A stretch of DNA of 64,000 nt from a virus: positions 5,815 to 69,814 of the IMG/VR virus record IMGVR_UViG_3300027724_000010; one strand, written 5' to 3'. The position numbers were made by a program, and so were the translations under genes. Shown here piece after piece: positions 15,682 to 34,716 of this stretch; the first letter of the stretch is position 1, and each line of letters opens with the position of its first letter. The notes beneath the pieces were generated by a model that saw only the letters and a list, made by a program, of their open reading frames with translations, was not told the DNA's origin and did not search any database.

Positions 15682-16032
15682 TTAAAATAATTTAATAATT
15701 TTTGTTAAACCAATATATTCTTCTCCTCCGCCTTCATGCTCACAACATTTTCTTATTTTTAATTTATATAATATTTTATCTATTAACCAGGGTATAGTAA
15801 TGGTAGGAATAACTCCCTTAACATTATATGAATCTATTATTTGATTAAGATACCATAACTGTTCATAAGTATTTACTCTAACAGTTAGATCGTTTAAAAA
15901 TCTTGGTCTATTTACATACATACGAATACCTTCTTCAGTATATTCTTGTTCTAATTTTTTAGCTATAGCGTAACTAGTATCGTCTGGATATTTAACTATT
16001 TGCATTTTGTTCTCTATTATCACCATCACCAT
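15682..16032 (-). CDS. hypothetical protein
   Basis: 116-aa ORF; likely uses an internal start because it overlaps the upstream gene. Confidence 0.5.
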   Translation of the reverse strand: MVMVIIENKMQIVKYPDDTSYAIAKKLEQEYTEEGIRMYVNRPRFLNDLTVRVNTYEQLWYLNQIIDSYNVKGVIPTITIPWLIDKILYKLKIRKCCEHEGGGEEYIGLTKIIKLF

Positions 16033-16492
16033 GAAGAGTATTTGTTTCTCTTCTTAGCATTAGTTTGTTATAATTATCTTCTAGTATTTTTAATATTTCT
16101 TCTTCTGGAAGATGATCTAATATACCAAAAGCAAAGTTAGATAGTATATAATAAACTTTTTCTTTATCTATTGGTTTATTATCTCTATAATGTTTTTTTA
16201 CTATACCGTATAACAACTCAACTCTAAACTCTCTCTCATCTAACTCTTTTCGTTCTGTTATTACTTTATTAAATGATATACCTAGTTCGTTACATAAAGC
16301 ACATAAGTACCATACTACATCACCTAACTCTTTATTTATACTTTCTTCTGATTCACCATCTAGTATTTTTTCTTTTACTTCATCTATCTCATCAAAAAGA
16401 CCTACTAAACAGTAATATAAACCAGCATCATCTACTTTTTTAGGGTATACTGCTGTTTTATTTATAATTTCTTCGTATTTTATTAAATTCAT
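15992..16492 (-). CDS. MazG-like nucleoside triphosphate pyrophosphohydrolase
   Basis: LFDEIDEVKE…ELGDVVWYLCALCNELGISF matches the MazG EExxE/ExxD metal-binding helices. Confidence 0.75.
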   Translation of the reverse strand: MNLIKYEEIINKTAVYPKKVDDAGLYYCLVGLFDEIDEVKEKILDGESEESINKELGDVVWYLCALCNELGISFNKVITERKELDEREFRVELLYGIVKKHYRDNKPIDKEKVYYILSNFAFGILDHLPEEEILKILEDNYNKLMLRRETNTLHGDGDNREQNANS

Positions 16493-16770
16493 TTTTTATT
16501 TATTTTTAATCTTTCGTGTAATCCAAAATCAGCACCAATAAGACCACCAACTAAACTAAATATAACCAATAAATAGTTACCTTTAATTATAGCATTTACT
16601 CCTATAGCTGTACTTATTAACCAAGTTATATGAACAATGCTACCTGTCCAAAATAACTTCCATCTATCTTTTTCTATATTAGCATTTACATTTACAGTTC
16701 TATAATATATAAATATAAACTGAGTAAACAATATTATAAATGCTTGTAACCAAATATTAAGTGTTTCCAT
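16489..16770 (-). CDS. small membrane protein (3 TM)
   Basis: 93-aa ORF with three hydrophobic helices. Confidence 0.5.
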   Translation of the reverse strand: METLNIWLQAFIILFTQFIFIYYRTVNVNANIEKDRWKLFWTGSIVHITWLISTAIGVNAIIKGNYLLVIFSLVGGLIGADFGLHERLKINKK

Positions 16771-16821
16771 TTAACTATTTTTATAAGTTTTCATAATTTA
16801 GTATTGTTCTCCACTCTTCCA

Positions 16822-17115
16822 TTATTTAATGTTTTTGTTATTAATTAAATAATGATAATTATAAAAAAGCATATTACACATAACATGGGCAGAATGGGGT
16901 AATTGAGATTCAGAATCATATACTTCACCATCCATCATTGCTGTTAAATGTCTCATAGCGGATTCCATTATTTCTTTATCATCCAATCCACCTTTCCAAT
17001 TATCTGCTGTATATTTTTTTGCACCGTATTCTAATACGCGAACCATTGGTTCTAAAGATTTCCACTCTACTAAACTCCATTTAGTTTTACCTTCATTATA
17101 TCTACTTCCTGACAT
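16822..17115 (-). CDS. dATP/dGTP pyrophosphohydrolase-like protein (DUF550 family)
   Basis: WSLVEWKSLEPMVRVLEYGAKKY…W…AMRHL…GE…DSESQLPHSAHVMCN matches the DUF550 pattern recalled from phage homologues. Confidence 0.6.
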   Translation of the reverse strand: MSGSRYNEGKTKWSLVEWKSLEPMVRVLEYGAKKYTADNWKGGLDDKEIMESAMRHLTAMMDGEVYDSESQLPHSAHVMCNMLFYNYHYLINNKNIK

Positions 17116-19237: not shown

Positions 19238-20452
19238 TTATTTAAAAATTGAAAGACATCCTAATACAACATCTTTAAATTTTACTTCTGATTTAGCTAA
19301 TGATTTTAAAATAAATAATTTATTATCTTTTTCAAAAACACTACTATTACCTATTTGAATCAATCTACTTTTTAATTCTGGAGTTACTGGAACGTTATTT
19401 TCAATTATTCTATCAATATAGTTAGATAATCGAAATGTAATAACACTTCTTATAACATATTCATTTTTAGATAAAGCAAAAGATTCTTCAATTCTTTTAA
19501 CTACTGTTTCAAATTTAGGTGTACTAATAATCTCTTCTGGTGTTATTATCTTATCAAAATCGTTGTTTATAAACGCTCCAAAACTATGAATAACATCTCC
19601 AAGAACTATTTGTCCTAGTTCGATTATTTTTGGTAAATCGTTTTTAGTATTTGGATATAATAGAGCTACCTGTTTAAAGAAGTTAGTCCATCTACGAATA
19701 GAACAAGCATTTGTATATTTTTTATCACTAGAATAACCAGAAACTACTTCTGGATTCATAAATATAAAATTTACATATTCGTCTGGAATAATTTTTCTAT
19801 CATCAATATATAAACCATCTGCAAAAGCGCACCAAGCTTCTTTGTTCCACTCTATTTCTATTGGAGTGATTCTATCTGCTTGTGCTCCATCGAGCTGTTG
19901 GACGTCATAATTTCCATCGTCTGGATTAGAAGATAAAAATACAGATACACCTTTTGGTAATTTCCAACTACCAAAAGCTTTTTCTTTAATTATCTCCATT
20001 ACTGCGTTTTGAAAAAATCCTAAGTTTCTACTAAAATCGTCTAATACAAGTATATCACCTTCTTTAACTCTAGATACAAAATCAGGTATAGCATCGCTCA
20101 TAACTGGATCGCTGTTACCCATTACCCAACCATTATCTATATAGTTTGGTATTTGTTTTTGAGTAATCCATTTTTTTACAACACCAGTTTCAGTATCTTT
20201 ACATACTTCTATCTTTATCATCGGATAACCTTTTAATTGTCCAATCTCATCGAACTGAGATAATCTAACAATTTCACAATGTATACCCTTTTCTTTTGCA
20301 AAACTTTTTAATATCTCTGTTTTACCAATACCATGCTCTCCAACTAACATTAAAGCAGCATTATCCATTTGCATGTTTAAATCACATGCTAATTTATTAG
20401 TATTATAAAAAATTTCGATATATTTTTTCGCATCAATTAAATTAAATTTCAT
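19238..20452 (-). CDS. AAA+ ATPase (MoxR/CobS-like)
   Basis: Walker A LMLVGEHGIGKTE and Walker B ILVLDDF; ATGA overlap with the downstream vWA gene. Confidence 0.7.
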   Translation of the reverse strand: MKFNLIDAKKYIEIFYNTNKLACDLNMQMDNAALMLVGEHGIGKTEILKSFAKEKGIHCEIVRLSQFDEIGQLKGYPMIKIEVCKDTETGVVKKWITQKQIPNYIDNGWVMGNSDPVMSDAIPDFVSRVKEGDILVLDDFSRNLGFFQNAVMEIIKEKAFGSWKLPKGVSVFLSSNPDDGNYDVQQLDGAQADRITPIEIEWNKEAWCAFADGLYIDDRKIIPDEYVNFIFMNPEVVSGYSSDKKYTNACSIRRWTNFFKQVALLYPNTKNDLPKIIELGQIVLGDVIHSFGAFINNDFDKIITPEEIISTPKFETVVKRIEESFALSKNEYVIRSVITFRLSNYIDRIIENNVPVTPELKSRLIQIGNSSVFEKDNKLFILKSLAKSEVKFKDVVLGCLSIFK

Positions 20453-21699
20453 TTACTATCAATTTTTAATGTTTTAAAATTATTACCCCAAGAACTTCTA
20501 AATGATTCTATAGATATACCATTACTAGTTAAAACCACAATCATTGGTTTTAAAGGTTTAACTTTTGTAAGAGATACATAACCATCAGTTAAATAAACAA
20601 TAGATGCTACATCTTTACATTCTTTGTTAATATACGCTATAGCAGGATCAACTACTGTTCCACCACCACCACTATAACCTTTAGTAGCTAATCTAGATAA
20701 TAATTCCGTAGAATTTTTATATGGATAAATGGAATCTTTAGTTATACTAGCATCACATTCGACAACTAATATATCCATTTTTGATTTTTTACCAATATTA
20801 TCTAACTCACTAAATGCTTCTTCTATATTTTTACCGTTCATAGAACCTGATGTATCTACTATAACTACTATTTTAGGTTTAAATTTTACTTTAAACATGG
20901 TTACATCATCAAAAAATTTAGATGGTTTAGTGTAACTTTTCTTTATTATAATTTTATTAGAAAATAAACCAATAAACGATTTTAACTCGTTTTTCCAATC
21001 AATTTTAGATATATTAGCGTTTAATAAATCAGATATAAACTTTTTTAAGAAACCAGGGATTGATCCCTGATTTCTATTTAAAGCATTAGCTTCTAATAAT
21101 ATTTTATTAACCTGAGCTTCTATTGTTTTATCTAGTACTTCTTGTGATACTTCTGATTTTTCTAACTTTTTCCATAAATCGTGATCTATCATCAATGGTT
21201 GTCCTTTAGAAGAACATTGATTATATAAATCTTTAAATTTAGGATTATTAGATTTTTTTAAAAAGTTATAAATAGCATCAGTACCTTCTTTGACTATATC
21301 TATTGGTACTTTCATATTATCATCATCGTACCAAATACCACCTTCTATAAAATAACTTTTATCTTTAAATATTTCATCTATTACTATATAATTTATATAA
21401 GCATCTGTAGAAATATTAAATAAATTAAAATCATCATAATCTTTGTATACTCGATAATGTTTAAGAATCAAATGATGTAACTCATGTAATAATAAAAATT
21501 GATTTTTTTTATGATTTTTACTATCTATTGATAACCAAAAATCAGGATTTAAATTAATTTCAAAATTTATACCATTCAAAACTAACCCCGCTGTTGTTAA
21601 AGAATTACTAAATCTTATACTAATTAAAGATAAAAAGTAAAAATAAAAATTACTATGTGCTTGTAATTCATAATTTACATCACCTATTTTTGGATTCAT
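20449..21699 (-). CDS. putative metallopeptidase-vWA protein (DUF2201-like layout: HExxH N-terminal domain plus C-terminal von Willebrand A domain)
   Basis: HELHHLILKH (HExxH) in the N-terminal half; VVIVDTSGSMNG (MIDAS DxSxS) in the C-terminal half. Confidence 0.7.
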   Translation of the reverse strand: MNPKIGDVNYELQAHSNFYFYFLSLISIRFSNSLTTAGLVLNGINFEINLNPDFWLSIDSKNHKKNQFLLLHELHHLILKHYRVYKDYDDFNLFNISTDAYINYIVIDEIFKDKSYFIEGGIWYDDDNMKVPIDIVKEGTDAIYNFLKKSNNPKFKDLYNQCSSKGQPLMIDHDLWKKLEKSEVSQEVLDKTIEAQVNKILLEANALNRNQGSIPGFLKKFISDLLNANISKIDWKNELKSFIGLFSNKIIIKKSYTKPSKFFDDVTMFKVKFKPKIVVIVDTSGSMNGKNIEEAFSELDNIGKKSKMDILVVECDASITKDSIYPYKNSTELLSRLATKGYSGGGGTVVDPAIAYINKECKDVASIVYLTDGYVSLTKVKPLKPMIVVLTSNGISIESFRSSWGNNFKTLKIDSK

Positions 21700-21708: not shown

Positions 21709-23424
21709 TTATGACTTTTTAATTACTTTTGCTACTTCTTCTTGAATACTTTTATTTCTTTGATCTCGCATTCTTTGTAACATATCTTCTCGATCTTTCA
21801 ATACTTGCTCATATGTCATATTGCTAAATTTATCAACAACATCATTAAAACCAGTACTACCATCTGATGTTTTTGTATTACCCAACGGATCGGTATTATC
21901 ATCAACTGATTTTTTATAAATACCAGTTGCCGTATCATATTTTATTTTCAATGCTGGTTTAACATTTAATCCATCGTCTATTCTCCTATCCAGAATATCT
22001 TTTACCGGATTAGATTTGGTAGTATTGTAAATCGCATATGAATTAGATACGTTATTTAATATATTCCAAAGCGAATCTTTAGAATCATTATCTTCTGTAA
22101 ATATATTACTATATGGAACAATAACTTTTTTTAATTCATCATCCGCTGCTGACACATTTATTAAAGAATTGTTATTTAAATAATAATGATCATAAAAATA
22201 TTTTTTAACTCGTCTTATATTTTCTAAAGTTATTTCTAATGTTGCTTTATCTTTAATATATGCTGTTAAACAATCTTCTAATTCGATTTTTATCTTCGTA
22301 TTCATTACATTAGAGTAATTATTTATAGCATAATCTATAATTGAAGAGTTTATTAATAACCACATTAAAATATAATCAAAATTATAAGTACTTTGTAAAC
22401 TACGAACTTCAATAGTAGCATGACTAAATGGTTTACATAAATAATTAAGAAAATTAATATTATAATACCTACCTTCTAGATTCCATTTAGATGTACCATT
22501 AATATATTCATTAAGAGATGGTAAAGAATCAATAAAACTTGTTTTAATTCTATTATCAATTCTAAATAATTTATAAATAGATTTAACATCTTTATCAATA
22601 AGTTTTGGTAAATTTTTACAATGATCTCTACCGTTTTTTTGTAATTTATCTGCTAAAAACTTTGTATCTTTTTTATATGGAATTATTAATTGATTTAACT
22701 CATCTGTTAATCTTTGAAATAAAGAATACATAGATAATAACTCTGTTTCTCCTTTAACAATGTTTCCTATATGTATATGTAAACTACAATATTGATCTAT
22801 ATCTGTACATGTTCTAGCAAAGTTCAAAAACTTTCTTAAACTTTCCATATTTTTTATATTCATTATATTAGATACATACTCAGCTCCAGTTATTGAACCA
22901 TCATATAATACAGCAAATCCCATATCATTAGCAATATCTTCTTTTATATAACCTCTACTAGTTTCTAATTCAAAACCATAAGTATATGTTATAAAATCTA
23001 ATACTGATCTTTTATTCTCGTAGTTATTTAATGATCTATTATAATGACTTATATTATATATTTTTTTATCTGGAGAATATTTATTAGTACTTGATATAAA
23101 TCTATCATATTTTGATATATATACATCTTTATTATCGGTAATATTGATCAGTTCATCTTTAAATCTCTTTAAATAAGATGCACAAACTCTATAAGTATGA
23201 TTTCTAAACATCAAAGTAATAGTTTTACTTGAATATTTAGTATTATTATCTATAATATCAGTATAACTAATTAATTTTGATTTATTTTGTATACTATTGG
23301 TATAAGTATCAAATTCTGTATTAACTTTTGGAACATATTTACCATCTAATAATACAGCTGTAACATCTTTAGTATATACTTTATCGTTTATTATTACTTG
23401 ATTTTTTTTTATTTTTTTTTCCAT
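21709..23424 (-). CDS. amidoligase-like protein (GCS2/glutamine-synthetase-like carboxylate-amine ligase, Amidoligase_2-type)
   Basis: YDGSITGAEY…CSLHIHIG motif shared with the paralogue at 28330..29214; sits in an operon with GATase-II, ATP-grasp and GGCT genes. Confidence 0.5.
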   Translation of the reverse strand: MEKKIKKNQVIINDKVYTKDVTAVLLDGKYVPKVNTEFDTYTNSIQNKSKLISYTDIIDNNTKYSSKTITLMFRNHTYRVCASYLKRFKDELINITDNKDVYISKYDRFISSTNKYSPDKKIYNISHYNRSLNNYENKRSVLDFITYTYGFELETSRGYIKEDIANDMGFAVLYDGSITGAEYVSNIMNIKNMESLRKFLNFARTCTDIDQYCSLHIHIGNIVKGETELLSMYSLFQRLTDELNQLIIPYKKDTKFLADKLQKNGRDHCKNLPKLIDKDVKSIYKLFRIDNRIKTSFIDSLPSLNEYINGTSKWNLEGRYYNINFLNYLCKPFSHATIEVRSLQSTYNFDYILMWLLINSSIIDYAINNYSNVMNTKIKIELEDCLTAYIKDKATLEITLENIRRVKKYFYDHYYLNNNSLINVSAADDELKKVIVPYSNIFTEDNDSKDSLWNILNNVSNSYAIYNTTKSNPVKDILDRRIDDGLNVKPALKIKYDTATGIYKKSVDDNTDPLGNTKTSDGSTGFNDVVDKFSNMTYEQVLKDREDMLQRMRDQRNKSIQEEVAKVIKKS

Positions 23425-23425
23425 T

Positions 23426-24865
23426 TTAATATGTTTTTATGGACAACGATTCACCATTTGCAACAAAAGTTGCTGTTGTTGGACCAAATAACGGACGGAT
23501 TGTTACTTGTAAATCATCAAATTTAGTTATATAATCTAAAGTACCGTCTGTTTTTTTATAAACTACAGTATGTAATTGTCTTTCTTTAAAAAACGGTATA
23601 AAATCTATTACTGTATTAAGTAACCTAGGTTGTTCACTATTAAAAAATTTATCTGCAGAATCTGATTTATTATAAAATCTTCCACGAATAGCATTATAAA
23701 TATGTTTATCTTTAACTATAATACCATCCACAAAAAGTATTTTATTAGTATAACTAGATTTTTTACTAAATAAAGCATACATTTCTTTCATAGCTGTATT
23801 AGGATTTAAAACACACTTATATTCTCCTTCAAGTGGTTTTCCAAGATTCATATCAGTATATCTACACTGATGTAAATTAATTCTTGGGTGTGCTACAGGA
23901 GAATCATTAAATGTTTTTCCTTCAGTAATATTTTTAATTATAGCTACATTTGTACTATGATTAACTACACCAGATGTTGCTTTAATTTTTGGCGCAGTAT
24001 AATCCCAACCGAGATAATTATTATTATAATAAGTTGTTTTCTCTTCATGATTTCTAACTATAATTTCAGATTTCTCTAACGCATGATTATGAAATGTTAA
24101 TAACTCATTATTTTGTACTTCTTGTACTTTATATAACCTATCAAAAACAAGATATAACGCATTTTTGATACTACTAAAATACCAACCACTAGGTGTTTCT
24201 ACATAATACAAAGGTCTCTCTTCAGTATCGTTATTAGCACCTTTCCATGCTTTAAAACAATTATTAGTATAATATAATAATGCAGCATATCCTTTGTAAA
24301 ATTTTAAAACATCAGCTTCATCTGCTTTACCAGATAGTGCTCTTCCTAGCGACATTGCTAAGTAATGCGAGTCTATATGTAATTGCTCATCAACATTCTC
24401 TACATCTTTTAAAAATTCTCTTTTAATATCATACATATTTGATAAAGTCCCGTTATGAGCTAAAGAAAAATGATTTAACCCATCCGAAGATTTATATACA
24501 AATGGATGACAATTATTAACATTATAAGTACCAATTGTACCTTTTCTTGTATGAAATATACAAGGTTTATTTAGTAATGGTATCTTTTCGATATTTTCGA
24601 ATTCGCTAGCTATAAAATCTCTAGCTTTTTTTTCTAAATTAGTACCAGTAAATCTAGTATCAGCTATAGATAAACCACAAGAATCGGTACCTCTATCTTC
24701 ATTTATTATACCTAATAAGTATAATTTATTTATATTAACTTTTTTACCCTTCTTCGGATAAAAACCAGCAAGTCCACAAGCTAATATATTTCTATCTGGT
24801 TTCATTAAATATCCCATAAATAGAGATATTAAAAAATAATATATTATAAAATTAATCAACATCAT
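23426..24865 (-). CDS. class-II (Ntn) glutamine amidotransferase-like protein
   Basis: N-terminal …ILACGLAGFY with a candidate nucleophile Cys after a short leader, plus DRGTDSCGLS; 479 aa. Confidence 0.5.
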   Translation of the reverse strand: MMLINFIIYYFLISLFMGYLMKPDRNILACGLAGFYPKKGKKVNINKLYLLGIINEDRGTDSCGLSIADTRFTGTNLEKKARDFIASEFENIEKIPLLNKPCIFHTRKGTIGTYNVNNCHPFVYKSSDGLNHFSLAHNGTLSNMYDIKREFLKDVENVDEQLHIDSHYLAMSLGRALSGKADEADVLKFYKGYAALLYYTNNCFKAWKGANNDTEERPLYYVETPSGWYFSSIKNALYLVFDRLYKVQEVQNNELLTFHNHALEKSEIIVRNHEEKTTYYNNNYLGWDYTAPKIKATSGVVNHSTNVAIIKNITEGKTFNDSPVAHPRINLHQCRYTDMNLGKPLEGEYKCVLNPNTAMKEMYALFSKKSSYTNKILFVDGIIVKDKHIYNAIRGRFYNKSDSADKFFNSEQPRLLNTVIDFIPFFKERQLHTVVYKKTDGTLDYITKFDDLQVTIRPLFGPTTATFVANGESLSIKTY

Positions 24866-25373
24866 TTTTAAAATTTTTTATTACATTTTTTGAAAAAGTT
24901 ATTAACTGCTCTATACTAGCTTCGTTTTTCATTGTATTAGCTAGTAGTGATATAATCCAGACATTTCCAGAAACATATCCTTTAGTATTATCAATTCTAT
25001 CTATAGATGCCCCATTAAGATTTCTACCATTACCATACACATAATCTAATTTTACATTTAATAGTGGACAATGTGTAGGTAAAATTTTAAAATCATCTTC
25101 TGTTATTGAGAATTCTATATTTCTAGTTCTAGCTGTATTTTTAGCAGTTAATAATTTTACTTTTAAATAATTTTCGCTTTTATATTTAAGCTTTTTCTTT
25201 TTATATTTTTCTGAAGAATATAAAGTTTTAATTTTATCTGTTTTTCTATATATTTTATCATATTCATTTTTACATATTTTACAATATTCTGATAAACCAG
25301 AATTTGTATTTTTGTTTTTATGAAATTCCATATTATCTTTTTCTATATTACATTTTTTACATATCTTTTTCAT
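24852..25373 (-). CDS. HNH homing endonuclease (zinc-finger N-terminus, IDRIDN-type HNH core)
   Basis: CKKCN…CKIC Cys pairs and NGASIDRIDNTKGYVSGNVWIISLLANTMK. Confidence 0.7.
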   Translation of the reverse strand: MKKICKKCNIEKDNMEFHKNKNTNSGLSEYCKICKNEYDKIYRKTDKIKTLYSSEKYKKKKLKYKSENYLKVKLLTAKNTARTRNIEFSITEDDFKILPTHCPLLNVKLDYVYGNGRNLNGASIDRIDNTKGYVSGNVWIISLLANTMKNEASIEQLITFSKNVIKNFKNDVD

Positions 25374-25398
25374 TATATTTTATATTCTTCGCTATATA

Positions 25399-27234
25399 TT
25401 ATTTTTTATCAATTAATCTTACAAATTCTTTTAAATAAACCGAAGCAGTAACTTCTGCCATACTTGGTGCAGAGTTAATTTCGATTATAGAAAATTCTGG
25501 AGAACTATTTTTACGTTCGTTTCCATCTTTATTTAAATTGGATTGTACTCTAACATCACAAGCTCCAAAATCTAATCCAACAGATTTGAGAGCTTTTATA
25601 CACTCATTCTGGATATTTTTTAAATTAACAGGAGCATCAAACAAAGGATTTTTCTCACTAATCCAATTACAGTTACTATTGTTAAAGAACCATTTTTGAT
25701 TAGCTGGAGTATCATTTCTCCTAAGCTTTCTCCACATTAAAAATACTCCATTAGTACTTACATGTATTCTATATTCTTTTGCAAAATTTTTAAATTTCTC
25801 AAAGATATAGTTTTCTATATTTCTACCTTTAGACCAACGTAACAACTCTTGTTCACTATCTAACTTATAATTACCTGTTCCACGAGATCCTAATATATGT
25901 TTTGCAACAATAGGATATTCTATATTAGAACCAGCTAAAGCACTAATAACATTGTCTATAGAATTTTGATAAACATACTCTGGTGTAGTTACTTTACCAT
26001 TTATAAAACAACGTTTCATTAGTAACTTAGATGAACTATTAGTTATAGCTTCTTCACTATTTAATACTACATCATACTCTTTAGTTGCTTTTGTTGTAGA
26101 TCCTAATCTTATTAATACTTTTTTAGTACTTTCTAAAACTTTTCTAAATACTCTATGAGATGGATGTCTAGATTTAATCTCAACTTCGTATCTTTTTTTA
26201 GTTTTATCTATATCATCTAAATAAGATTTATAATCAAATGTATATAATCTATCAACTAATTGATTAGTTAAACAATAACTATTATCAGGATTAAAAATAT
26301 AATAGATTTGTCTATCACCACATTGTACTTGATTACCTAATTTAATATAATCTCTAGACCTAGATACTTTATTAAGATATTTTTCTAATTCTACTGGGAA
26401 ATTATAAGCAATATATTGATCCCAAGATCCAGTATTTGGATCTATAGTTATACCTCTAATTTTAAAATCTACAATTTTATATTGTTTAAAAATATCCATT
26501 TTAGGATTATCTTTAGAATTATATAGAATAAAAGAAGTACTACTTTTAGCTATTTCGTTTAACTGTTTCATCGTTGTTAAGGCTTTTTCTATTGTTGTTT
26601 CATATGGTTCTTTAGTTTCACCTAAATATAAACCATATGGACCTGCTGCATTAGAAGCAACTTTATTAAAATGAGCTACTAACTCTTTTACAGTTACTTC
26701 TTTACAAACTACTGGAGGTAAAAAAGTATAAACTGAACTATTTATAGAACACCATGATAATTTTTTAATTCGATCAAACTCTGAATCATTTTTATCACAT
26801 ATATTTAAATAATTAAAGAGTATTTGTTGACCATAATAAAAATGTCTAAACATACAAAACGCATAATATCTATGTCTACTAGAAGTATAATCTCTTAAAT
26901 CTAGTTCAACAATTATAGACTCATTTATAGTAGTATAATTGCTAAGAAATTCGTATTTACCAGTAGCTTTAGATTCAAATATTTTAAATTTAAATCCAAA
27001 ATTTGATATTTCTTCTAAAATTTCTTCAAATGTTTTTTTAGTTTCATCGCACATTATTTTTATATCATCTTTCTTAAGAAATAGATACATATATCGTGAT
27101 GATGCTCCTGTAATAGCACCATTACAACCATTTAATCTATTAATACTACTACCAAGTAATAAATCTATATTCTCTTGTGTAAAAGGAGTACTACGAAATA
27201 TATGTGCAGAAAAATTTGATGTATTATGTCTCAT
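25399..27234 (-). CDS. ATP-grasp ligase (RimK/glutathione-synthetase-like C-terminal domain) with a large N-terminal domain of unknown function
   Basis: C-terminal YPIVAKHILGSRGTGNYKL…EYRIHV…E…N matches the ATP-grasp fold signature. Confidence 0.65.
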   Translation of the reverse strand: MRHNTSNFSAHIFRSTPFTQENIDLLLGSSINRLNGCNGAITGASSRYMYLFLKKDDIKIMCDETKKTFEEILEEISNFGFKFKIFESKATGKYEFLSNYTTINESIIVELDLRDYTSSRHRYYAFCMFRHFYYGQQILFNYLNICDKNDSEFDRIKKLSWCSINSSVYTFLPPVVCKEVTVKELVAHFNKVASNAAGPYGLYLGETKEPYETTIEKALTTMKQLNEIAKSSTSFILYNSKDNPKMDIFKQYKIVDFKIRGITIDPNTGSWDQYIAYNFPVELEKYLNKVSRSRDYIKLGNQVQCGDRQIYYIFNPDNSYCLTNQLVDRLYTFDYKSYLDDIDKTKKRYEVEIKSRHPSHRVFRKVLESTKKVLIRLGSTTKATKEYDVVLNSEEAITNSSSKLLMKRCFINGKVTTPEYVYQNSIDNVISALAGSNIEYPIVAKHILGSRGTGNYKLDSEQELLRWSKGRNIENYIFEKFKNFAKEYRIHVSTNGVFLMWRKLRRNDTPANQKWFFNNSNCNWISEKNPLFDAPVNLKNIQNECIKALKSVGLDFGACDVRVQSNLNKDGNERKNSSPEFSIIEINSAPSMAEVTASVYLKEFVRLIDKK

Positions 27235-27237
27235 TTG

Positions 27238-27615
27238 TTATTTTTTATTAAAATCTCCAGATTTAACAACTCTACCATCATCATTATTAAAGTATAACCA
27301 TGCTTCAATAGTTTTACCATTTAAATTAACAGGTATCAACTCTCTTTTGTACCAACTACCATCATGATTTTCAGGATCATATCCTTCTAATCTATCTACT
27401 CTTGGTAAATCTCTTTCTTGTACTTCCCATACATCTACTACTATTTGTGTATCGGGTGTTTTATTTACAAAAGGTATACCCCTTTCTTTCATTTGATATT
27501 TCTCTACTGTTACTCCAGTACCTTTATGATTATCTCCAGTATCTATTAATCTAGAGTTGGATCCATTTTTACGAAGTGTGCCGTAACATGCTATATATAT
27601 ACTTTCTTTATTCAT
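27238..27615 (-). CDS. gamma-glutamyl cyclotransferase-like (GGCT/AIG2) protein
   Basis: ACYGTLRKNGSN…DRLEGYDPE…Y motifs of the GGCT/AIG2 fold. Confidence 0.7.
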   Translation of the reverse strand: MNKESIYIACYGTLRKNGSNSRLIDTGDNHKGTGVTVEKYQMKERGIPFVNKTPDTQIVVDVWEVQERDLPRVDRLEGYDPENHDGSWYKRELIPVNLNGKTIEAWLYFNNDDGRVVKSGDFNKK

Positions 27616-27757
27616 CTTTTAATTTATTTTTATAAAAATTTTTTACTAAATTTATTATTTCTTCATCACTCCAATCTTGCTTCATCATATTGTACCACCA
27701 ACAAGTTACTAAATATATTTTATATTATGGTACTACTATTATACCATATGTTGATAT

Positions 27758-28333
27758 TTAATATAATTTATTTATTAAATCTTTTATATAAGTTAAATTA
27801 TGTCTGTAAAAACCAGCACTATGCATCCATTCTGGATGAAACTGTACTGTTAATGCTTTTACTTTTGGAAACCACAGTATCTCTGGTTCTATTATACACT
27901 TTATTTCTTCTTTAGCTGTATAATGATGTTCAGTAGCGATACTACTATACCCAAACACTTTAAAATTTTCATCTTCTATAATATTTTTTGTCCACACCAA
28001 TTGATGATGTGCGCTATTTGTTAATATTTCTGTATCAAAAATACCTGTTTCTAGATTTCTTATTTTAATATTGTGCTCACTTGGATGCTTCATGTCTTGT
28101 ATAAGCGTTAATCCATTTAAAGCAGCAATTAATTGATGTCCACGACAAATACCAAAAATAGGTTTACCTTTTTTAACAGCATCGTAATACTGATTTATAT
28201 GTAATCTATCTTGATCAGATGGTTCTGGACCATAAATATTAGATTTATAGTTTTCTTTACCATAAATAGATGGATGGATATCAGCACCACCTGGTAAAAC
28301 TACAAAATCTTCACTTAAAAATCCATATTTCAT
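27758..28333 (-). CDS. class-I glutamine amidotransferase-like gamma-glutamyl hydrolase (PuuD/peptidase C26-like)
   Basis: VLPGGADI…GICRGHQL nucleophile elbow and C-terminal H…E (QFHPE). Confidence 0.7.
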   Translation of the reverse strand: MKYGFLSEDFVVLPGGADIHPSIYGKENYKSNIYGPEPSDQDRLHINQYYDAVKKGKPIFGICRGHQLIAALNGLTLIQDMKHPSEHNIKIRNLETGIFDTEILTNSAHHQLVWTKNIIEDENFKVFGYSSIATEHHYTAKEEIKCIIEPEILWFPKVKALTVQFHPEWMHSAGFYRHNLTYIKDLINKLY

Positions 28334-29214
28334 ACTGTTTCTAATATTATAAAGTCGTTATTTCTAATTAACTTGTTTTTTAACTTTTTACAAGCTTCTC
28401 TACTATATTCTGTATCATCTACTAATTTTAAATTATCGTAGTATTTATCATAATACTCATCCAATAAATTAGCATCTAATACTTTTTTTATCATTTTTAT
28501 ACCGTAATCCACAAACTGTGGATAGTTGTGTATACCAGCCCCTAACACTCTATATTCTATTCTATTAGATGCTTCTTGATCTTTACCTATTATTCTATGA
28601 TCGCTAAGATTTCCATATAACTTTCGTCTATCTACATCTTTATCATAATACATAGATTGAAAACCTAAAAATACATCATTAAGAATCATAAATTTATGTA
28701 ACTCTTCTTTTGTATATTTTTCATCCCAACCATAATGAATATGGTAACCACAACTTCTCAAATTACCTACCATAGCTGGATCTGGTCTAAACGATATATC
28801 ATTCCGATATACACTATAACTTGGTTCACAACCAAAAGTCATAGCTTGTTCGTTATCTAACTCCATCATATTATATCTAGCACTAGATACTATATCTAAA
28901 CTATACATTGGATCAATTTCTGCTAACCATTTATTAGTATATTCAATACAATCGTCAATTATAGATTTATACATCCAATACTCTTTCATTGGTGGTAATG
29001 TAAACTCTATCATTACATTATCTAATTGTTGAAAACATCCTTCTAAAGCTATAGGTTTAGGATCTTTTTTTGTACCTTCTACTATATTTATTAGAGATTG
29101 ATATTCATTTATACCCTTTATTATACACGGAAATTCAGGATCTCCCCCTATCAAAAAATTTGATTTCATTTTACTAGTTATTTTTATAATAAATATCTTT
29201 ATTACCCCATTCAA
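28330..29214 (-). CDS. amidoligase-like protein, paralogue of 21709..23424
   Basis: SCGYHIHYG motif equivalent to the HIHIG motif of the paralogue. Confidence 0.45.
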   Translation of the reverse strand: MNGVIKIFIIKITSKMKSNFLIGGDPEFPCIIKGINEYQSLINIVEGTKKDPKPIALEGCFQQLDNVMIEFTLPPMKEYWMYKSIIDDCIEYTNKWLAEIDPMYSLDIVSSARYNMMELDNEQAMTFGCEPSYSVYRNDISFRPDPAMVGNLRSCGYHIHYGWDEKYTKEELHKFMILNDVFLGFQSMYYDKDVDRRKLYGNLSDHRIIGKDQEASNRIEYRVLGAGIHNYPQFVDYGIKMIKKVLDANLLDEYYDKYYDNLKLVDDTEYSREACKKLKNKLIRNNDFIILETV

Positions 29215-29692
29215 TTGGAGTTTTGTTATTTTTTATGAGTATTTTATTTATATTTATAAACACATCACTACCCACAAATACTTTTTTACCAGAATATTGA
29301 TCACTCATTGGGTGAACAACTTCTAAAATATTTCCACTAACTATATTTGTTTTAAACTTTTGAGCATCTCTACCCATCAATAACCAAATAATATCTGGTC
29401 TTTTTTTACTTAAACTTGTTATTAGATGCTCAGTAAATGGTTTCCATATTTTACTATGAGAACCAGATAAACCTTGCTCAACAGTTAAAGAAGCGTTTAA
29501 TAATAAAACACCTTGCTCGCACCAATTAAACAATGATTTAGCTTGATAAACAGGATTACCATATATTGGAAACCCTGTTCTTTTTAATTCTTCAAATATT
29601 ATTTTTAAACTAGGATTTATATATCCATTTTCTGTAGCAAATGCTACTCCACACGCTGATGGTACACACTTGTATAATCCAGGATAAGGCAT
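29174..29692 (-). CDS. uracil-DNA glycosylase, exon 2 (family 1 UDG C-terminal two thirds)
   Basis: GVLLLNASLTV…GSHSKIWKPFTEHLI…IIWLLMGRDAQK…HPMS is colinear with family-1 UDG from the GQDPY motif onward. Confidence 0.85.
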   Translation of the reverse strand: MPYPGLYKCVPSACGVAFATENGYINPSLKIIFEELKRTGFPIYGNPVYQAKSLFNWCEQGVLLLNASLTVEQGLSGSHSKIWKPFTEHLITSLSKKRPDIIWLLMGRDAQKFKTNIVSGNILEVVHPMSDQYSGKKVFVGSDVFININKILIKNNKTPIEWGNKDIYYKNN

Positions 29693-30763
29693 TTTGTTAT
29701 CACTAAGACTCTTTATTCTTAGTTTCTGTACTTTTATTTTCGAGTTATAGGTACAGTTCAGACTATATCTTCTACTTTTCAGTAGTGCTGATTTCGTGGA
29801 TATATTATATTCTATAAATTATTATTTATAGTTTCAATATCTAGTCGTTAGGCATTTACTAATATATTATTATTAGATTTAGCAAGGGATTGTCCACTTC
29901 TGGATATTCCCCTTTTAACAGCATTTATACAGAACCCTCATGTAATTTATATATCATTGAAGGAATAATATAAGGTTTAATTATATTAGTAAAATTTATA
30001 ACAGATTTTAGTTTTATATAAATAGAATTATAATAGGAATGATAACTTGCTTCTATATTAAATTTATCTTTTAATAATTTTATTAAAAATAAAACTTCTT
30101 CTTTTGAGAATGAGCAAGTATATATCATATATCCATGTGTAGCTTTACTACCATCATCCATAAACCAAATTGCTAACCCAAAAGAATCAATTTTAGTTAT
30201 AAAATCTTTATTGATAATTTTAATATTATCTTTATAAAAAAAATTTCTATATTTACTAAATATAGGATTAGATTTACTTTTGAAAGTATAATTTTGATTT
30301 AATTTATTTTTAAATCTATTATCTATATTTTCGTAATATCTAAATTTTCCTGCTAATTTAAAATCATTTAAAAAATTATGTTTATATTGACAATACTCTT
30401 TTTGTTTTACACCATGTGCGAAAACCATGCTGGATTGTTTTGCTAATCCTGATATTTTAGATAGGTACCCATCACCTAATAATGAACCAATTATAAATTG
30501 ATCCAAAATATCCGAATCTATACTTAGATATCTATTCGATTTTAAACTATAACGATTTAAATCTGAAATGACCTTTTTTACAGGTATTTTCAGCAAATCA
30601 GCAATTTCTATATTAGTTAATTTATTAGAATATAATTCTAATATATTTTCTGTTAATTTACTTTTTTTTCGTATTTTCATTGTGAATTATTTTTCACAAA
30701 TATACTAAATTAATCCTAATATCCCAACTTTATTATATTAATAAATTGTTAAATATTTTAAAA
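29690..30763 (-). mobile_element. group I intron interrupting the UDG gene after the GQD codons; carries a LAGLIDADG endonuclease ORF
   Basis: UDG ORF breaks at GQD|PYPG; minus-sense R-like CCTAACGACTAGAT (~29843) and S-like GATATAGTCTGAAC (~29748); the last intron base is G (omega-G) immediately before the CCT codon. Confidence 0.65.
29925..30680 (-). CDS. LAGLIDADG homing endonuclease (double-motif)
   Basis: FIIGSLLGDGYLSK and LAIWFMDDGSK motifs ~100 aa apart. Confidence 0.8.
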   Translation of the reverse strand: MKIRKKSKLTENILELYSNKLTNIEIADLLKIPVKKVISDLNRYSLKSNRYLSIDSDILDQFIIGSLLGDGYLSKISGLAKQSSMVFAHGVKQKEYCQYKHNFLNDFKLAGKFRYYENIDNRFKNKLNQNYTFKSKSNPIFSKYRNFFYKDNIKIINKDFITKIDSFGLAIWFMDDGSKATHGYMIYTCSFSKEEVLFLIKLLKDKFNIEASYHSYYNSIYIKLKSVINFTNIIKPYIIPSMIYKLHEGSV

Positions 30764-31009
30764 ATCCTGTCCCAATATAACAACTTTCGTATTATCATAC
30801 TCGCACTCACTAAATGCTCTAAATACTTGATTTTTTTCAGGATATACGATTGTATTTTCATATAATACATCTAAATTATTTAACAATTCGTCTAATCTAG
30901 AATCTAATCCTGTTTCTTTTACAAAATTATTCCACGTTTTAAACTCCGGAACCATTTTTATAATTTTTAGAACCATTTGTAGCTTTAAAAAATCCAACAC
31001 CAAATTCAA
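30758..31009 (-). CDS. uracil-DNA glycosylase, exon 1
   Basis: …VYPEKNQVFRAF…KVVILGQD matches the UDG N-terminal segment up to the water-activating GQDPY loop. Confidence 0.8.
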   Translation of the reverse strand: MNLVLDFLKLQMVLKIIKMVPEFKTWNNFVKETGLDSRLDELLNNLDVLYENTIVYPEKNQVFRAFSECEYDNTKVVILGQDF

Positions 31010-31090
31010 ATAAAATCACACATAATAAATACCACCAGCTTGGTTGTATATCGTCTGGTAACATTAGTTGAACTAGTATAAACGTTTCTG

Positions 31091-31420
31091 TCATATACCT
31101 AATAAATTTTTAATTAAATTAGAAGAATAATTATCATATAATTCTTCCGAATGGTACTGAACGGCAGCTATTGGTAAAGTTTCATGTCGAAATGCTTCAA
31201 TAAGTAAACCACCATCTTCAGTAGAGTCTTCAGAAAACAATAAAGGTTCTAAATCTTTACCTAAATTCAATAAACAAACAGCTTGATGATGATGAGAATT
31301 TACTTTAAATTCTTTAGTATGTTTTTTTACAGTATATGGTGTATCAATACCAGAATAAACGTCGTGAGCTGTAGCCCATCTACTAGATGATTGTGGATGA
31401 TATATTAAATTTTGAGTCAA
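31091..31420 (-). CDS. class-I GATase-like gamma-glutamyl hydrolase, exon 2
   Basis: …SHHHQAV…LPIAAVQYHSEE corresponds to the catalytic His/Glu region of class-I amidotransferases. Confidence 0.65.
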   Translation of the reverse strand: MTQNLIYHPQSSSRWATAHDVYSGIDTPYTVKKHTKEFKVNSHHHQAVCLLNLGKDLEPLLFSEDSTEDGGLLIEAFRHETLPIAAVQYHSEELYDNYSSNLIKNLLGI

Positions 31421-31423
31421 CTT

Positions 31424-32410
31424 AGATCCAAAATATACTGCTAATTGTTGTCAATTTGTTATCTTACAAGTTCTTTATCTTGTAATTCTTATAGTTTCCT
31501 ATAAGTTCAGACTATATCATATTCTTTATAATTTATTTACTTTTTATAACTATTATTAATATTTTTTATTATATTTGCACTTATGAATAAAAATGAACAA
31601 ATAGTAAAATCGCTTCATAAAGAAGGATTAAACGATAGTCAAATTAATGCTATAAGTGGTATATATAGAAGTACTGTTGGTAAAATACGTAAAAAATTAG
31701 ATTTAGAATCTAATGGTTCTAAATATGTACCATTATACAGTAAACTTAAAGAACTCTATTTGGATAATCTAACGGATTCTGAAATAGCTAAAAAATTAGA
31801 TATATCAGATAAAGCTGTATTCTATATTAGAAAACAATTAGATTTAAAAACCAAATTTAAAGTTAAAAAATATTATAACTCTATTGATAAAAGAAAAGGT
31901 TACTGGTTACGTAATATTCGTAATTCAGCAATGCAAAGAAATTTAGATTATAACTTACAAATAGAAGATTTTGATTTACCAGAATTTTGTCCACTACTTG
32001 GGACAAAATTAAATTATAATGGTAAACCAAATGATCCTTATAACGCTAGTATAGATCGTATAGATAATACTAAAGGTTATATTAAAGGTAATGTTATAGT
32101 TATATCTAGAAAAGCTAACCAAATGAAAAATTCTGGTACACTTGACGAATTATTAACTTTTGCTTCTAATATCAATATTCTTGTAAATTATTATAAAGAT
32201 CAAGGCGCTCTTGGAGATATTACCGACGTATTTCCAAACATAGTATTATGTAAAGAAATTTAGTCTCGATCTCTAGTCGTTGAACTTTTAAAGTTATTTC
32301 TAACTAAACTTAGCTGCTGATTGACATATACAATATATATTGTACTTAGTGTTCCAGCAATTCACCTCATTTTTAACCATAAATCACTTTATGGTGGGTC
32401 CCAACATTAG
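31424..32410 (-). mobile_element. group I intron in the class-I GATase gene, carrying an antisense HNH endonuclease ORF in its P8 region
   Basis: host ORF breaks right after GICLGF; minus-sense R AAAGTTCAACGACTAG (~32280) and S GATATAGTCTGAAC (~31503); plausible U/G splice sites giving …GICLGF|TQNLIYHPQ…. Confidence 0.6.
31583..32263 (+). CDS. HNH homing endonuclease (IDRIDN-type) with an N-terminal helix-turn-helix-like region
   Basis: PLLGTKLNYNGKPNDPYNASIDRIDNTKGYIKGNVIVISRKANQMKN; encoded opposite to the surrounding genes and the intron. Confidence 0.75.
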   Translation: MNKNEQIVKSLHKEGLNDSQINAISGIYRSTVGKIRKKLDLESNGSKYVPLYSKLKELYLDNLTDSEIAKKLDISDKAVFYIRKQLDLKTKFKVKKYYNSIDKRKGYWLRNIRNSAMQRNLDYNLQIEDFDLPEFCPLLGTKLNYNGKPNDPYNASIDRIDNTKGYIKGNVIVISRKANQMKNSGTLDELLTFASNINILVNYYKDQGALGDITDVFPNIVLCKEI

Positions 32411-32721
32411 TTAAACCCTAAACATATACCGAATATAGGAGTTTTAGAATCAATATACGCTTTCAATCTATTATTCATAAAGAAATCTTTATAAACATCT
32501 GTATTAGAAGTATAAAATCCTGGTACTTCACCATAATTTGCTGGATTAACATCTAATCCACCTGGTAATAGTATCATATCTACATCTACTTTTTCTTCCC
32601 ACGGTAATATAATACGTGGATTACCAAAATTACTAATAAACTCTAAATATGTTTTATTAGCACCAAAACTGTTATCACCCATAGATGATCCTGGAATACC
32701 TATTACTTTTTTTTTACTCAT
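32407..32721 (-). CDS. class-I GATase-like gamma-glutamyl hydrolase, exon 1
   Basis: ILLPGGLDV…PIFGICLGF nucleophile-elbow region; the ORF stops immediately after it. Confidence 0.65.
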   Translation of the reverse strand: MSKKKVIGIPGSSMGDNSFGANKTYLEFISNFGNPRIILPWEEKVDVDMILLPGGLDVNPANYGEVPGFYTSNTDVYKDFFMNNRLKAYIDSKTPIFGICLGFN

Positions 32722-33116
32722 TATTTTGTTATTTTATTTATCCACATCTTTATAGTATTACCACTAGATGGATTTATAAAAGTTTTTACTAACAACCAGT
32801 TATTATTCTTTTCTAATACTTTCTCAAGAAATACACAAGTACCATAACCATTTGTATTTATAATTAAATCATTATGACGTTTTGCTATTTCTGTAAATAA
32901 TTCTGATATAGCATCTATATGATCACTACTAAAATCACTATATCCAGTCATTCTAAAATTACCTATTTCGGATGCACCGCAACAATAAGGTAAGTCACTT
33001 ATTAACATATCTATAGTAGATAAACCATTATTATAACTTATTATTAATTGATCATATTTAAATAAACTATCTATCCAACTTTTTAAATCTTTAATTTTAT
33101 ATTTGTTTTCCATCAA
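32721..33116 (-). CDS. hypothetical protein
   Basis: 131-aa ORF; TGATG overlap with the GATase exon. Confidence 0.5.
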   Translation of the reverse strand: MMENKYKIKDLKSWIDSLFKYDQLIISYNNGLSTIDMLISDLPYCCGASEIGNFRMTGYSDFSSDHIDAISELFTEIAKRHNDLIINTNGYGTCVFLEKVLEKNNNWLLVKTFINPSSGNTIKMWINKITK

Positions 33117-33181
33117 CCACCTAAACTATCGTTAATAATATCTCCATTATCATCAAATGGATTTGTTAATTGTTTCATCTT

Positions 33182-33712
33182 TTAAATATTTATTACTGAA
33201 ATATAAACTCTATTTTTAGTTCTTTTATTTACAACATCATGTATATCTTTCCAACCATTAGTTTTTAATAACTTTCTTTGGTGAGTATTTTGCTCTATAT
33301 CTGTACATAGTATAGATGAGTAGTTTAATACTCTACCTATATCTTGTCTAAATTGGTTTAAAATAGTACCAATACGCATACCACGATATTTTTCAGTTAC
33401 ATTAACATTACAACTAACCATAAAAGCACAACAATGTGGCATCTGATATAGCTTCCATGTAGATATAACTTCTTCTTCGTATTTTACAGCATAATCGCCT
33501 AATCCTAAATTAGTTGCAACAAATACATAGTTATTCATATCAAATGGTACACCACGTTCTTTAGCATCTTCTCTAGCTTCTTCTTCTGATTTTGAGTATT
33601 TCAACTCACCTATTAGATTTTTATCTTTATAAAAAGTTATATCATTAATATCACAAGATAATATTCCTGCTAATATTTTACGATATTTATCTAATATCTC
33701 TAATGTTTTCAT
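33182..33712 (-). CDS. GNAT-family N-acetyltransferase
   Basis: YRGMRIGTILNQF (R/Q-x-x-G-x-G/A acetyl-CoA loop) in the right position of a 176-aa protein. Confidence 0.6.
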   Translation of the reverse strand: MKTLEILDKYRKILAGILSCDINDITFYKDKNLIGELKYSKSEEEAREDAKERGVPFDMNNYVFVATNLGLGDYAVKYEEEVISTWKLYQMPHCCAFMVSCNVNVTEKYRGMRIGTILNQFRQDIGRVLNYSSILCTDIEQNTHQRKLLKTNGWKDIHDVVNKRTKNRVYISVINI

Positions 33713-34684: not shown

Positions 34685-34716
34685 TAAAAAAAGAGAGTAG
34701 CATTACACTACTCTCT
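34685..34716 (-). terminator. rho-independent terminator (minus strand)
   Basis: GAGAGTAG-CATTACA-CTACTCTC hairpin followed on the minus strand by T7. Confidence 0.55.

Follow-up and report, generated by a model that had tools for sequence, protein, structure and literature searches.

A probable crAss-like form of the phage amidoligase module known from phiEco32 and LUZ24, with lineage-specific additions

Results

The amidoligase block and its setting

We analysed a 64,000-nt stretch of viral DNA (IMG/VR record IMGVR_UViG_3300027724_000010, positions 5,815 to 69,814), hereafter the window, in which positions 21709..33712 hold a 12-kb block of minus-strand genes whose predicted products make or break amide and gamma-glutamyl bonds. 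The order of the core genes is COOH-NH2 ligase (phiEco32-type, type 2, PF14395 family; 28330..29169), GAT-Ia (a 191-aa protein of the Peptidase_C26/class-I glutamine amidotransferase, or GATase, family; 27758..28333), GGACT (a GGACT/AIG2-type gamma-glutamyl(amine) cyclotransferase; 27238..27615), a 611-aa protein that joins an N-terminal domain to a RimK-like ATP-grasp ligase (25399..27234), GAT-II (a protein with the class-II, or Ntn, glutamine amidotransferase fold; 23426..24865) and Amidoligase_2 (a 571-aa carboxylate-amine ligase of the PF12224 family; 21709..23424). Three ATP-dependent carboxylate-amine ligase families are represented, namely RimK-like ATP-grasp, PF14395 COOH-NH2 ligase and PF12224 Amidoligase_2, and each has a neighbour of another kind: GGACT lies directly upstream of the ATP-grasp gene, GAT-I directly downstream of the COOH-NH2 ligase gene, and GAT-II directly upstream of Amidoligase_2. 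The enzyme families had been proposed in a preliminary description of the DNA, and all of them were borne out by Pfam, PHROG and orthologue-profile matches. We regard the block as very probably a crAss-like version of the amidoligase module of phiEco32- and LUZ24-type phages.

The G+C content of the window is 20-31% (mean ~26% over the 64 kb), and the minus strand carries almost all genes. Pfam scans covered open reading frames (ORFs) of at least 70 aa inside the 64-kb window. The cassette is located within a replication gene block that runs from primase to downstream nucleotide-metabolism genes. Replication and nucleotide-metabolism genes of the window encode DnaB, an SNF2-type helicase, a Sak4-like AAA_24 protein, primase and DHFR, as well as DNA ligase, MazG, a MazZ-like domain and DNA-polymerase-like ORFs around a GIY-YIG ORF. 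For several window proteins the nearest catalogued relatives are Crassvirales (Cellulophaga phage phi14:2, cr108_1, cr50_1 and others) at 21-41% identity, and a nucleotide search of 50,697 phage records with the 12-kb block returned no matches. From these comparisons the source of the window is read as a divergent crAss-like phage.

A strong terminator-like hairpin with an 11-bp stem and a T run (34692..34716, minus strand) lies immediately upstream of the primase gene, and no comparably strong terminator was found on the minus strand from 34692 to 19753. Because the cassette genes are tightly packed on one strand, their co-transcription is likely, and the arrangement fits a single long transcription unit with primase first and the cassette after it.

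Three families of ligase

The ATP-grasp part of the 611-aa protein occupies residues ~348-611. Residues 371-609 match phrog_2599 (1.6e-28), and a profile search finds many ATP-grasp enzymes of solved structure (best E 1.8e-10); a PDB search with the protein as a single sequence gave noise only. Matches to NCBIfam models (MptN, RimK, CofF, PurK) are weak, and the best of them are cofactor-tail or peptide alpha-L-glutamate ligases (MptN, RimK, CofF). The preceding N-domain (residues 1-345) has invariant C37, C127 and R130, carries the motif RYYAFCMIRHLYYYQ and has no enzymatic fold match. It is present in 2 of the 88 related loci described below and is lineage-specific.

The COOH-NH2 ligase ORF (28330..29214, 294 aa) matches phrog_3815, 'COOH.NH2 ligase', at 1.3e-34. 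Its start is likely the ATG at 29169, which gives a protein of 279 aa as in L095, a close metagenomic relative of the window. The window protein itself scores below a PF14395 match, which 24 of the 26 aligned orthologues have. Six residues, E27, E70, H158, R196, E220 and R222, are invariant, and sequence and profile searches against PDB detected no relative.

For the Amidoligase_2 protein there was no direct Pfam or PHROG match and no PDB relative by sequence or profile, and its assignment comes from its 33 homologues, several of which (28-48% identity) carry PF12224. The conserved core spans residues ~145-345, with GFELET, YDGSITGxE and CSLHIHIG invariant, and is followed by a variable, low-complexity C-terminal tail.

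This ligase and the COOH-NH2 ligase share an HIHxG motif, which the preliminary description took as a sign that they are paralogues. That relationship is not supported: the BLASTP E value between them is 0.2, and hhalign covers only the 18-column motif, at 13% probability. As judged by these alignments they are two distinct families that are always found together in the module. None of the cassette ligases has a sequence match to the PafA/Dop family.

Amidotransferase-fold and cyclotransferase partners

GAT-Ia matches Pfam Peptidase_C26 (1.4e-17) and GATase (1.8e-12) as well as phrog_7218 (5e-22), and its Cys-His-Glu triad is intact (GICRGHQ ... QFHPEW). Further upstream in the block is a second gene of the same fold, GAT-Ib, which is split by an intervening sequence. 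Its halves (ORFs 32407..32721 and 31091..31420) match Peptidase_C26 at 2.4e-10 for exon 1 and 3.7e-6 for exon 2, and the spliced product of 222 aa contains GICLGLQQ and the His and Glu of the catalytic triad (VQYHSEE); the unsplit GAT-Ib of L095 is also 222 aa long and carries GICLGLQQLAVYFG. Peptidase_C26 outscores GATase for both GAT-I proteins. The best NCBIfam match of GAT-Ib is gamma-glutamyl-CDP-amidate hydrolase (2.8e-14, under the family cut-off), and weak NCBIfam matches of the two proteins include this hydrolase and gamma-glutamyl-GABA hydrolase.

The GGACT gene, placed 3 nt upstream of the ATP-grasp gene, matches Pfam GGACT at 5.8e-17 and phrog_2520 at 6.9e-25. The same adjacency is found in phi14:2 and in the metagenomic locus L003, and in phage UFV-P2 GGACT likewise adjoins the ATP-grasp gene (PMC3890496).

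GAT-II consists of a 29-aa hydrophobic leader, a catalytic domain that begins at Cys30, a disordered linker (residues 276-322) and a beta-rich C-terminal domain (residues 323-479). The residues for glutamine hydrolysis, C30, R107, N138-G139 and D165, are all invariant. GAT-II matches PurF and GlmS slightly better than EgtC, and its C-terminal domain has no PRTase, SIS or AsnB-type match and no synthase domain. A PurF-like amidophosphoribosyltransferase, an idea prompted by the PrsA gene that lies beside the cassette in Leptolyngbya phage Lbo-JY46, was rejected on account of this C-terminal domain. Long GAT-II homologues were checked for domain fusions and none was informative.

Conservation of the cassette

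Relatives of the Amidoligase_2 protein are encoded on 158 viral-metagenome stretches. We gathered 88 loci encoding such relatives, from phages and metagenomes, which collapse into 42 groups at 60% identity. All 42 groups have GAT-II, the COOH-NH2 ligase and Amidoligase_2 together, and these are joined by GAT-I in 38 (with two copies in 11), ATP-grasp in 34, primase in 29, GGACT in 21 and UDG in 16. GAT-II adjoins Amidoligase_2 in 40/40 groups, the genes often overlapping, and GAT-I adjoins the COOH-NH2 ligase in 32/38. No gene fusion between a GATase and a ligase was present in the 88 loci, and no small acidic Pup-like or LysW-like carrier ORF conserved in the cassette was seen in the related loci. 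This recurring gene grouping is far beyond chance. Neighbourhood comparison upholds the view that the block is one conserved system for the ligation and cleavage of amide bonds. What the data show directly is the fold and family of each protein, the integrity of the catalytic motifs, and the conservation of both gene order and co-occurrence.

The position of the cassette also recurs. It lies beside primase in phi14:2, cr108_1 and L003, while in the Zobellviridae PA11 and CVT22 the same gene set precedes the primase-helicase gene and GAT-II adjoins the COOH-NH2 ligase, not Amidoligase_2; in PA11 the cassette is at the genome start. LUZ24-like phages, including UFV-P2, carry the cassette, likewise ahead of the primase-helicase gene (PMC3890496), and in Lbo-JY46 it is next to PncB and PrsA. 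Further conserved neighbours in related loci are replication genes only (pol A, dUTPase, Sak4).

A scan of 185,579 species genomes found relatives on only six contigs (15-161 kb) of metagenome-assembled genomes; five of these are 105-161 kb long, a size typical of crAss-like phage genomes, and are read as phage-like for that reason; the scan yielded no bacterial gene context. The scan suggests that the Amidoligase_2 clade is essentially phage-restricted.

Introns, homing endonucleases and a mobile leader

Comparison with L095, whose Amidoligase_2 is 97% identical and whose nucleotide identity to the window is 93-99%, delimits three insertions, since L095 lacks all of them. The first splits GAT-Ib (exon 1, 32414..32721; exon 2, 31091..31451). 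Collinearity with L095 (757/758) makes it an exact insertion of 962 nt, from 32413 to 31452 on the minus strand. Exon 1 ends ...GICLG plus TT, so that the base before the insert is T, and the last base of the insert is G. An ORF on the opposite strand of this intron (31583..32263, plus strand) has the HNH motif DRIDNTKGY and a match to HTH_23, as expected of an HNH-type homing endonuclease.

The second insertion, of ~1074 nt (~29690..30763, minus strand), splits a family-1 uracil-DNA glycosylase (UDG) gene (29174..30955, minus strand; Pfam UDG 1.6e-6) immediately after GQD. Splicing it out restores the motif VVILGQDPYPG, and it contains a LAGLIDADG ORF (29925..30680, minus strand; LAGLIDADG_2, 5.9e-33). 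In L095 the UDG is intact at 235 aa, the insertion site being at ~1435-1473. UDG is probably a replication-module gene embedded in the block and not a part of the ligase system.

An Rfam search with both intervening sequences gave no match at the gathering threshold, and none at E<=1 in 29000..33300. Hallmarks of group I introns are present, namely an insertion that is precise, restores the frame and falls in a conserved motif, with U just ahead of the 5' splice site, a 3' G and an internal homing endonuclease ORF. The intervening sequence of GAT-Ib is probably a group I-like intron by these features; we use 'group I-like' for both introns because the hallmarks are indirect and Rfam recognises neither.

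The third insertion is a free-standing HNH homing endonuclease gene (24852..25373, minus strand; motif IDRIDNTKGY), an addition of ~600 nt relative to L095 at the start codon of GAT-II. We compared this site in the window (24776..25373), L095 (6228..6260), L003 (8596..) and a further metagenomic locus, L005 (8009..8600), which has a homologous 173-aa HNH ORF at the same place. Where the HNH gene is absent (L095, L003), GAT-II starts MCGLAGF, with the catalytic Cys directly after the initiator. Where it is present (window, L005), an in-frame 29-aa leader ending ...NILA precedes that Cys, which in the window becomes residue 30 behind a leader that would need removal. Because the leader is identical in the related protein P0080, although the remainder of that protein is just 62% identical, the comparison suggests that the leader travels with the HNH endonuclease. 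L095 itself has a 191-aa HNH ORF between GAT-Ia and GGACT that is missing from the window.

Introns and homing endonucleases, which the preliminary description gave as the sole interruptions of the block, are indeed there; the intron-split UDG and a degenerate GNAT-like ORF, described next, also lie inside it.

Accessory genes of the block

A divergent, acyltransferase-like protein of the GNAT fold (the GNAT-like protein, 176 aa) is encoded right after the primase gene (33182..33712, minus strand), a position repeated in L074 and L086. Alone it scores only 18.7 bits against Acetyltransf_1, below the cut-off; its family comprises 808 clusters, and 14 of 30 sampled members match Acetyltransf_1 (best E 5.9e-6). 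It holds a CoA motif of the R-x-x-G-x-G type (YRGMRIGT). The adjacent ORF131 (32721..33116, minus strand) was matched by the profile of the GNAT-like family in an hmmsearch of 108 window proteins (E 8e-6). It keeps the P-x-C-C motif and the shared C-terminal half and is without the R-x-x-G-x-G CoA motif. On this alignment evidence ORF131 is a degenerate paralogue of its neighbour. The pair is kept in L095, where ORF131 is intact. Other lineages (L068, L074, L086) have second C26 copies and the GNAT-like gene in matching positions, and the second C26 enzyme and the lineage-variable GNAT pair are accessories of the cassette.

Other genes of the window

Two candidates for membership were rejected. 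A DUF2201 metallopeptidase/VWA gene and an AAA_5 MoxR-like gene (19238..21699, minus strand) abut the cassette, yet they never co-occur with it in other loci (0/88). They form one of two AAA-ATPase plus VWA pairs in the window, the other being a 612-aa VWA-like protein and an AAA protein at 51325..54301 (minus strand). The GGCT-like gene at 12001..12465, which the preliminary description had counted as part of the system, has no detectable similarity to the cassette GGACT and was never linked to the cassette (0/88). It belongs to a group of the NAD/ADP-ribose-conflict type (7404..12944, minus strand) that includes an RlaP nucleotidyltransferase (7404..8453), an ADP-ribosylglycohydrolase (9236..9967) and, beside the GGCT-like gene, an ORF that appears macro-like by eye only (12462..12944).

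Also on the minus strand, a MazZ-like dATP/dGTP diphosphohydrolase N-domain protein (16822..17115) and MazG (15992..16492) lie at 15992..17115; a MazZ-like gene is found less than 10 kb from the cassette in 12 of the 88 loci, and no PurZ was seen in the window. At ~15701..15778 the window has a 946-nt deletion relative to L095 (15496..16470), which removed most of a gene of 324 aa in L095 with a weak phosphoribosyltransferase (Pribosyltran) match; the remnant ORF (15682..16032) is a 116-aa N-terminal piece.

An ATP-dependent DNA ligase (13433..15201, minus strand) is in separate ORFs for its adenylation (14551..15201) and OB (13433..13882) parts, and the ORF between them (13879..14496) has, by eye, an HNH-like HxxH motif; L095 has the same three-ORF layout. 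A GIY-YIG ORF (44232..44909) lies between DNA-polymerase-like ORFs (45138..46112 and 43198..44109) at 43198..46112 (minus strand). Pfam matched the GIY-YIG domain only and the polymerase call comes from reading the sequence; this is probably another interruption by an intron or homing endonuclease. Rfam tRNA matches at 54412..54517 and 54647..54758 (minus strand; 106 and 112 nt) cover the full 71-position model, and ARAGORN calls neither; both may be tRNA genes with insertions or introns. Finally, about ten tandem paralogous ORFs of 85-135 aa (46152..49680, minus strand) have no family match; a C-terminal motif of ~40 aa is common to them, and BLASTP E values between pairs reach down to 6e-10.

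Discussion

The module and what has been said of it

The preliminary description presented the block as a candidate ligation system. The ligation module stands, and its novelty was overstated: the module is already catalogued and is not a new kind, having its own Pfam families in PF14395 and PF12224. The type-2 ligase matches 299 phage records, in which the named hosts of isolated phages are nearly all Gram-negative, and GenBank already annotates the module in the crAss-like phages phi14:2 and cr108_1. The phiEco32-type amidoligase module was reportedly described by Iyer, Abhiman, Burroughs and Aravind in 2009. Their proposals for it, as given in two later papers that cite them, are cell-wall modification, superinfection exclusion and secondary-metabolite synthesis (PMC10580990, PMC11318856). 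We found no biochemical or genetic characterisation of the module in the full-text literature that we searched, in agreement with the earlier statement that no member had been characterised.

A possible route through gamma-glutamyl conjugates

The C26, GAT-II and GGACT enzymes have characterised relatives that either cut gamma-glutamyl amide bonds or liberate ammonia from glutamine. In polyamine catabolism (PuuA/PuuD), ergothioneine synthesis (EgtA/EgtC) and butirosin synthesis (BtrJ/BtrG), glutamate is put on an amine and later removed. The ligase and hydrolase genes that neighbour one another in the window lead us to liken the module to these pairs. Substrates, flux direction and benefit to the phage are matters of inference here. 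Tentatively, and with less than even confidence, we propose that the module assembles gamma-glutamyl or amide conjugates on a small metabolite with an amine group, and trims them. The ligases, acting in the infected cell's cytoplasm, would activate a carboxylate as an acyl-phosphate and couple it stepwise to the amine of a small, widely conserved metabolite, for which a polyamine-like compound is our preferred candidate. The activated group would probably be a gamma- or alpha-carboxyl, carried either by glutamate or by a glutamyl conjugate. The C26, GAT-II and GGACT enzymes would then trim or remove gamma-glutamyl groups, or they would use glutamine as a source of glutamate or ammonia, and glutamylation would be either a temporary handle or a means of neutralisation. 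The 'regulated ligation/removal cycle' of the preliminary description was drawn from the enzyme families and not from evidence in the sequence.

We lean towards a small molecule because the GAT-I proteins fit better as C26 hydrolases, GAT-II is without a synthase domain and the ligases are compact in most phages. A universal acceptor is favoured because the module works in very different hosts. The Pfam text for PF12224 reportedly places ligases of this family next to either a GAT-like thiol peptidase or an Aig2 cyclotransferase, which would imply that the partner cuts a gamma-glutamyl bond.

Several observations weigh against a metabolite as the acceptor or against paired ligation and hydrolysis. 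All NCBIfam matches are far below family cut-offs and none points to a substrate. The ligases are not of PF00120 like PuuA, and no Puu-like amine oxidase or aldehyde dehydrogenase was found in the 64-kb window. The pairing of ligase with hydrolase is not fixed, as the place of GAT-II by the COOH-NH2 ligase in Zobellviridae illustrates; in the window an HNH gene separates the ATP-grasp gene from GAT-II, and no GAT-ligase fusion exists in the 88 loci. RimK (on S6) and PafA (on Pup) modify proteins, and GGACT takes gamma-glutamyl-lysine, so that protein tagging would fit these families too. The GATases could also be true ammonia donors, in which case the ligase products would be carboxamides.

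Alternative explanations

Protein tagging is the foremost alternative, and we consider it a possible, if doubtful, one. The ligases would attach either glutamate or a short peptide to a protein of the host or the phage, from which the C26, GAT-II and GGACT enzymes would remove it, with RimK on S6, tubulin tyrosine ligase-like enzymes (TTLs) on tubulin and PafA with Pup as precedents; Iyer et al. reportedly read the module in this manner, and the preliminary description likewise counted proteins among the possible targets. The RimK-like character of the ATP-grasp domain would suit such a role, as would the presence of the GNAT pair and the cleavage of epsilon-(gamma-glutamyl)-lysine by relatives of GGACT (PF06094). 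The 345-aa N-domain of the ATP-grasp protein and the C-terminal domain of GAT-II, which have no enzymatic fold match, could bind a target. The accessory domains are, however, lineage-specific, and with the N-domain in only 2 of 88 loci the cassette of most phages works without it. Tagging is further disfavoured by the lack of a Pup-like or LysW-like small acidic carrier ORF conserved in the cassette, and by the characterised relatives of the C26 and Ntn GAT-II enzymes, which act on small molecules.

We think it unlikely that the module serves glutamine-dependent amidation, in which a GATase would pass ammonia to the neighbouring ligase and the carboxylate of a metabolite, cell-wall precursor or nucleotide would become a carboxamide, as with MurT/GatD and NAD synthetase. 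The invariant glutamine-hydrolysis residues of GAT-II are what such an enzyme would need, and its constant place by Amidoligase_2 (40/40 groups, with frequent overlaps) is typical of two-subunit enzymes. A step of the NaAD-to-NAD type would also fit the PncB and PrsA genes beside the Lbo-JY46 cassette. Against this, GGACT, present in half of the lineages, cannot supply ammonia, and in some bacteria it reportedly replaces the GAT partner, according to the PF12224 text; the 88 loci offer no GAT-ligase fusion, and the GAT-I proteins resemble C26 hydrolases more.

Modification of peptidoglycan precursors or of the envelope to block superinfection is cited as the proposal of Iyer et al. for phiEco32 in two later papers (PMC10580990, PMC11318856). 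The peptidoglycan stem peptide does offer gamma-D-glutamyl, free carboxyl and amine groups, and the named hosts of isolated phages are nearly all Gram-negative. Still, the window offers no link between envelope genes and the cassette, which sits among replication genes, or at the genome start in PA11, and short-cycle, strictly lytic phages gain little from superinfection exclusion at the cell wall. The sole hydrophobic leader, that of GAT-II, apparently came with a homing endonuclease and is missing in close relatives. We hold this explanation to be quite improbable.

Amidoligase and GATase genes in thymidine-hypermodification clusters are suspected of a role in side-chain synthesis, and the position of the cassette between primase and UDG or exonuclease, with MazZ-like and MazG genes nearby, would allow the ligases and GATases to extend or amidate a base side chain here too. 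DNA or nucleotide hypermodification is nonetheless very improbable: Pfam found no dUMP/dCMP hydroxymethylase, 5-HMUDK, aGPT-Pplase/AADT, TET/JBP or DpdA-type gene in the 64-kb window, the cassette proteins have no DNA-binding or glycosylase-like domain except the ordinary family-1 UDG, and the DNA of phage tf, a member of the LUZ24-like phages that bear the cassette (PMC3890496), behaves normally, in that HaeIII cuts it, T4 ligase joins it and Sanger sequencing is normal (PMC3517423).

Returning to conjugates on a small amine, a more speculative extension, which we think improbable, is that the cassette is a phage counter-measure that would disarm a universal host amine, the polyamines, by ATP-dependent gamma-glutamylation and further processing. 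Pseudomonas is said to accumulate polyamines as a response to the threat of phage. If this extension were true, the three ligase/hydrolase pairs would be a previously unknown phage metabolic pathway common to crAss-like, LUZ24-like, phiEco32-like and Zobellviridae phages.

Significance

Of the multi-enzyme cassettes of tailed phages that have no known product, this module is one of the more widespread, and its carriers, in which it keeps an early or replication gene context, range from Pseudomonas and E. coli phages that are therapeutic candidates to crAss-like phages of the gut. Knowledge of the substrate would add to the biochemistry of phage-host interaction, be it through a metabolite, a protein tag, or modification of the cell wall or of nucleic acid. 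The question of the product predates this window, and cultured LUZ24-like and phiEco32-like phages are more tractable for it. What the window contributes is a minimal conserved core with rules of gene order, the lineage add-ons (N-domain, second C26 enzyme and GNAT pair), a natural intron-plus/intron-minus pair, and the insertion of a homing endonuclease at the catalytic N-terminus of an Ntn amidotransferase.

Comparison with known systems

The closest known system is the module of phiEco32- and LUZ24-like phages, which has the same components: PF14395 and PF12224 ligases, an Ntn GAT-II, a C26/GAT-I enzyme, a RimK-like ATP-grasp ligase and an AIG2/GGACT cyclotransferase, located by primase or primase-helicase and restricted to phages. 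The window differs from the catalogued phages of this type in sequence, with 23-41% identity and no nucleotide match, and in arrangement, its gene order being rearranged and interrupted by two introns and a free-standing HNH gene. Further differences are the 345-aa N-domain on ATP-grasp, the second C26 paralogue and the tandem GNAT-like pair.

PuuA/PuuD, the Pseudomonas Pau enzymes and Streptomyces GlnA2-4 share with the cassette the pairing of an ATP-dependent ligase of the glutamine synthetase superfamily with a gamma-glutamyl hydrolase of the Peptidase_C26/GAT-I fold. The ligases there are glutamine-synthetase-type enzymes of PF00120, whereas those here belong to PF14395 and PF12224, and the likeness is one of logic only. 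Pfam matched no Puu-like pathway gene (PF00120 synthetase, amine oxidase, aldehyde dehydrogenase) in the 64-kb window, the C26 hydrolase being the only shared component. The ergothioneine (EgtA/EgtC) and butirosin (BtrJ/BtrG) systems differ in their EgtB/D/E enzymes and acyl carrier protein, respectively, which are not present here. Pupylation by PafA/Dop resembles the cassette, through a superfamily link taken from the literature, in using a carboxylate-amine ligase related to glutamine synthetase to form a gamma-glutamyl isopeptide, and a second enzyme for the reverse reaction; it differs from the cassette in its PafA/Dop sequences, unmatched in the window, and in its small tag, for which the cassette has no conserved ORF.

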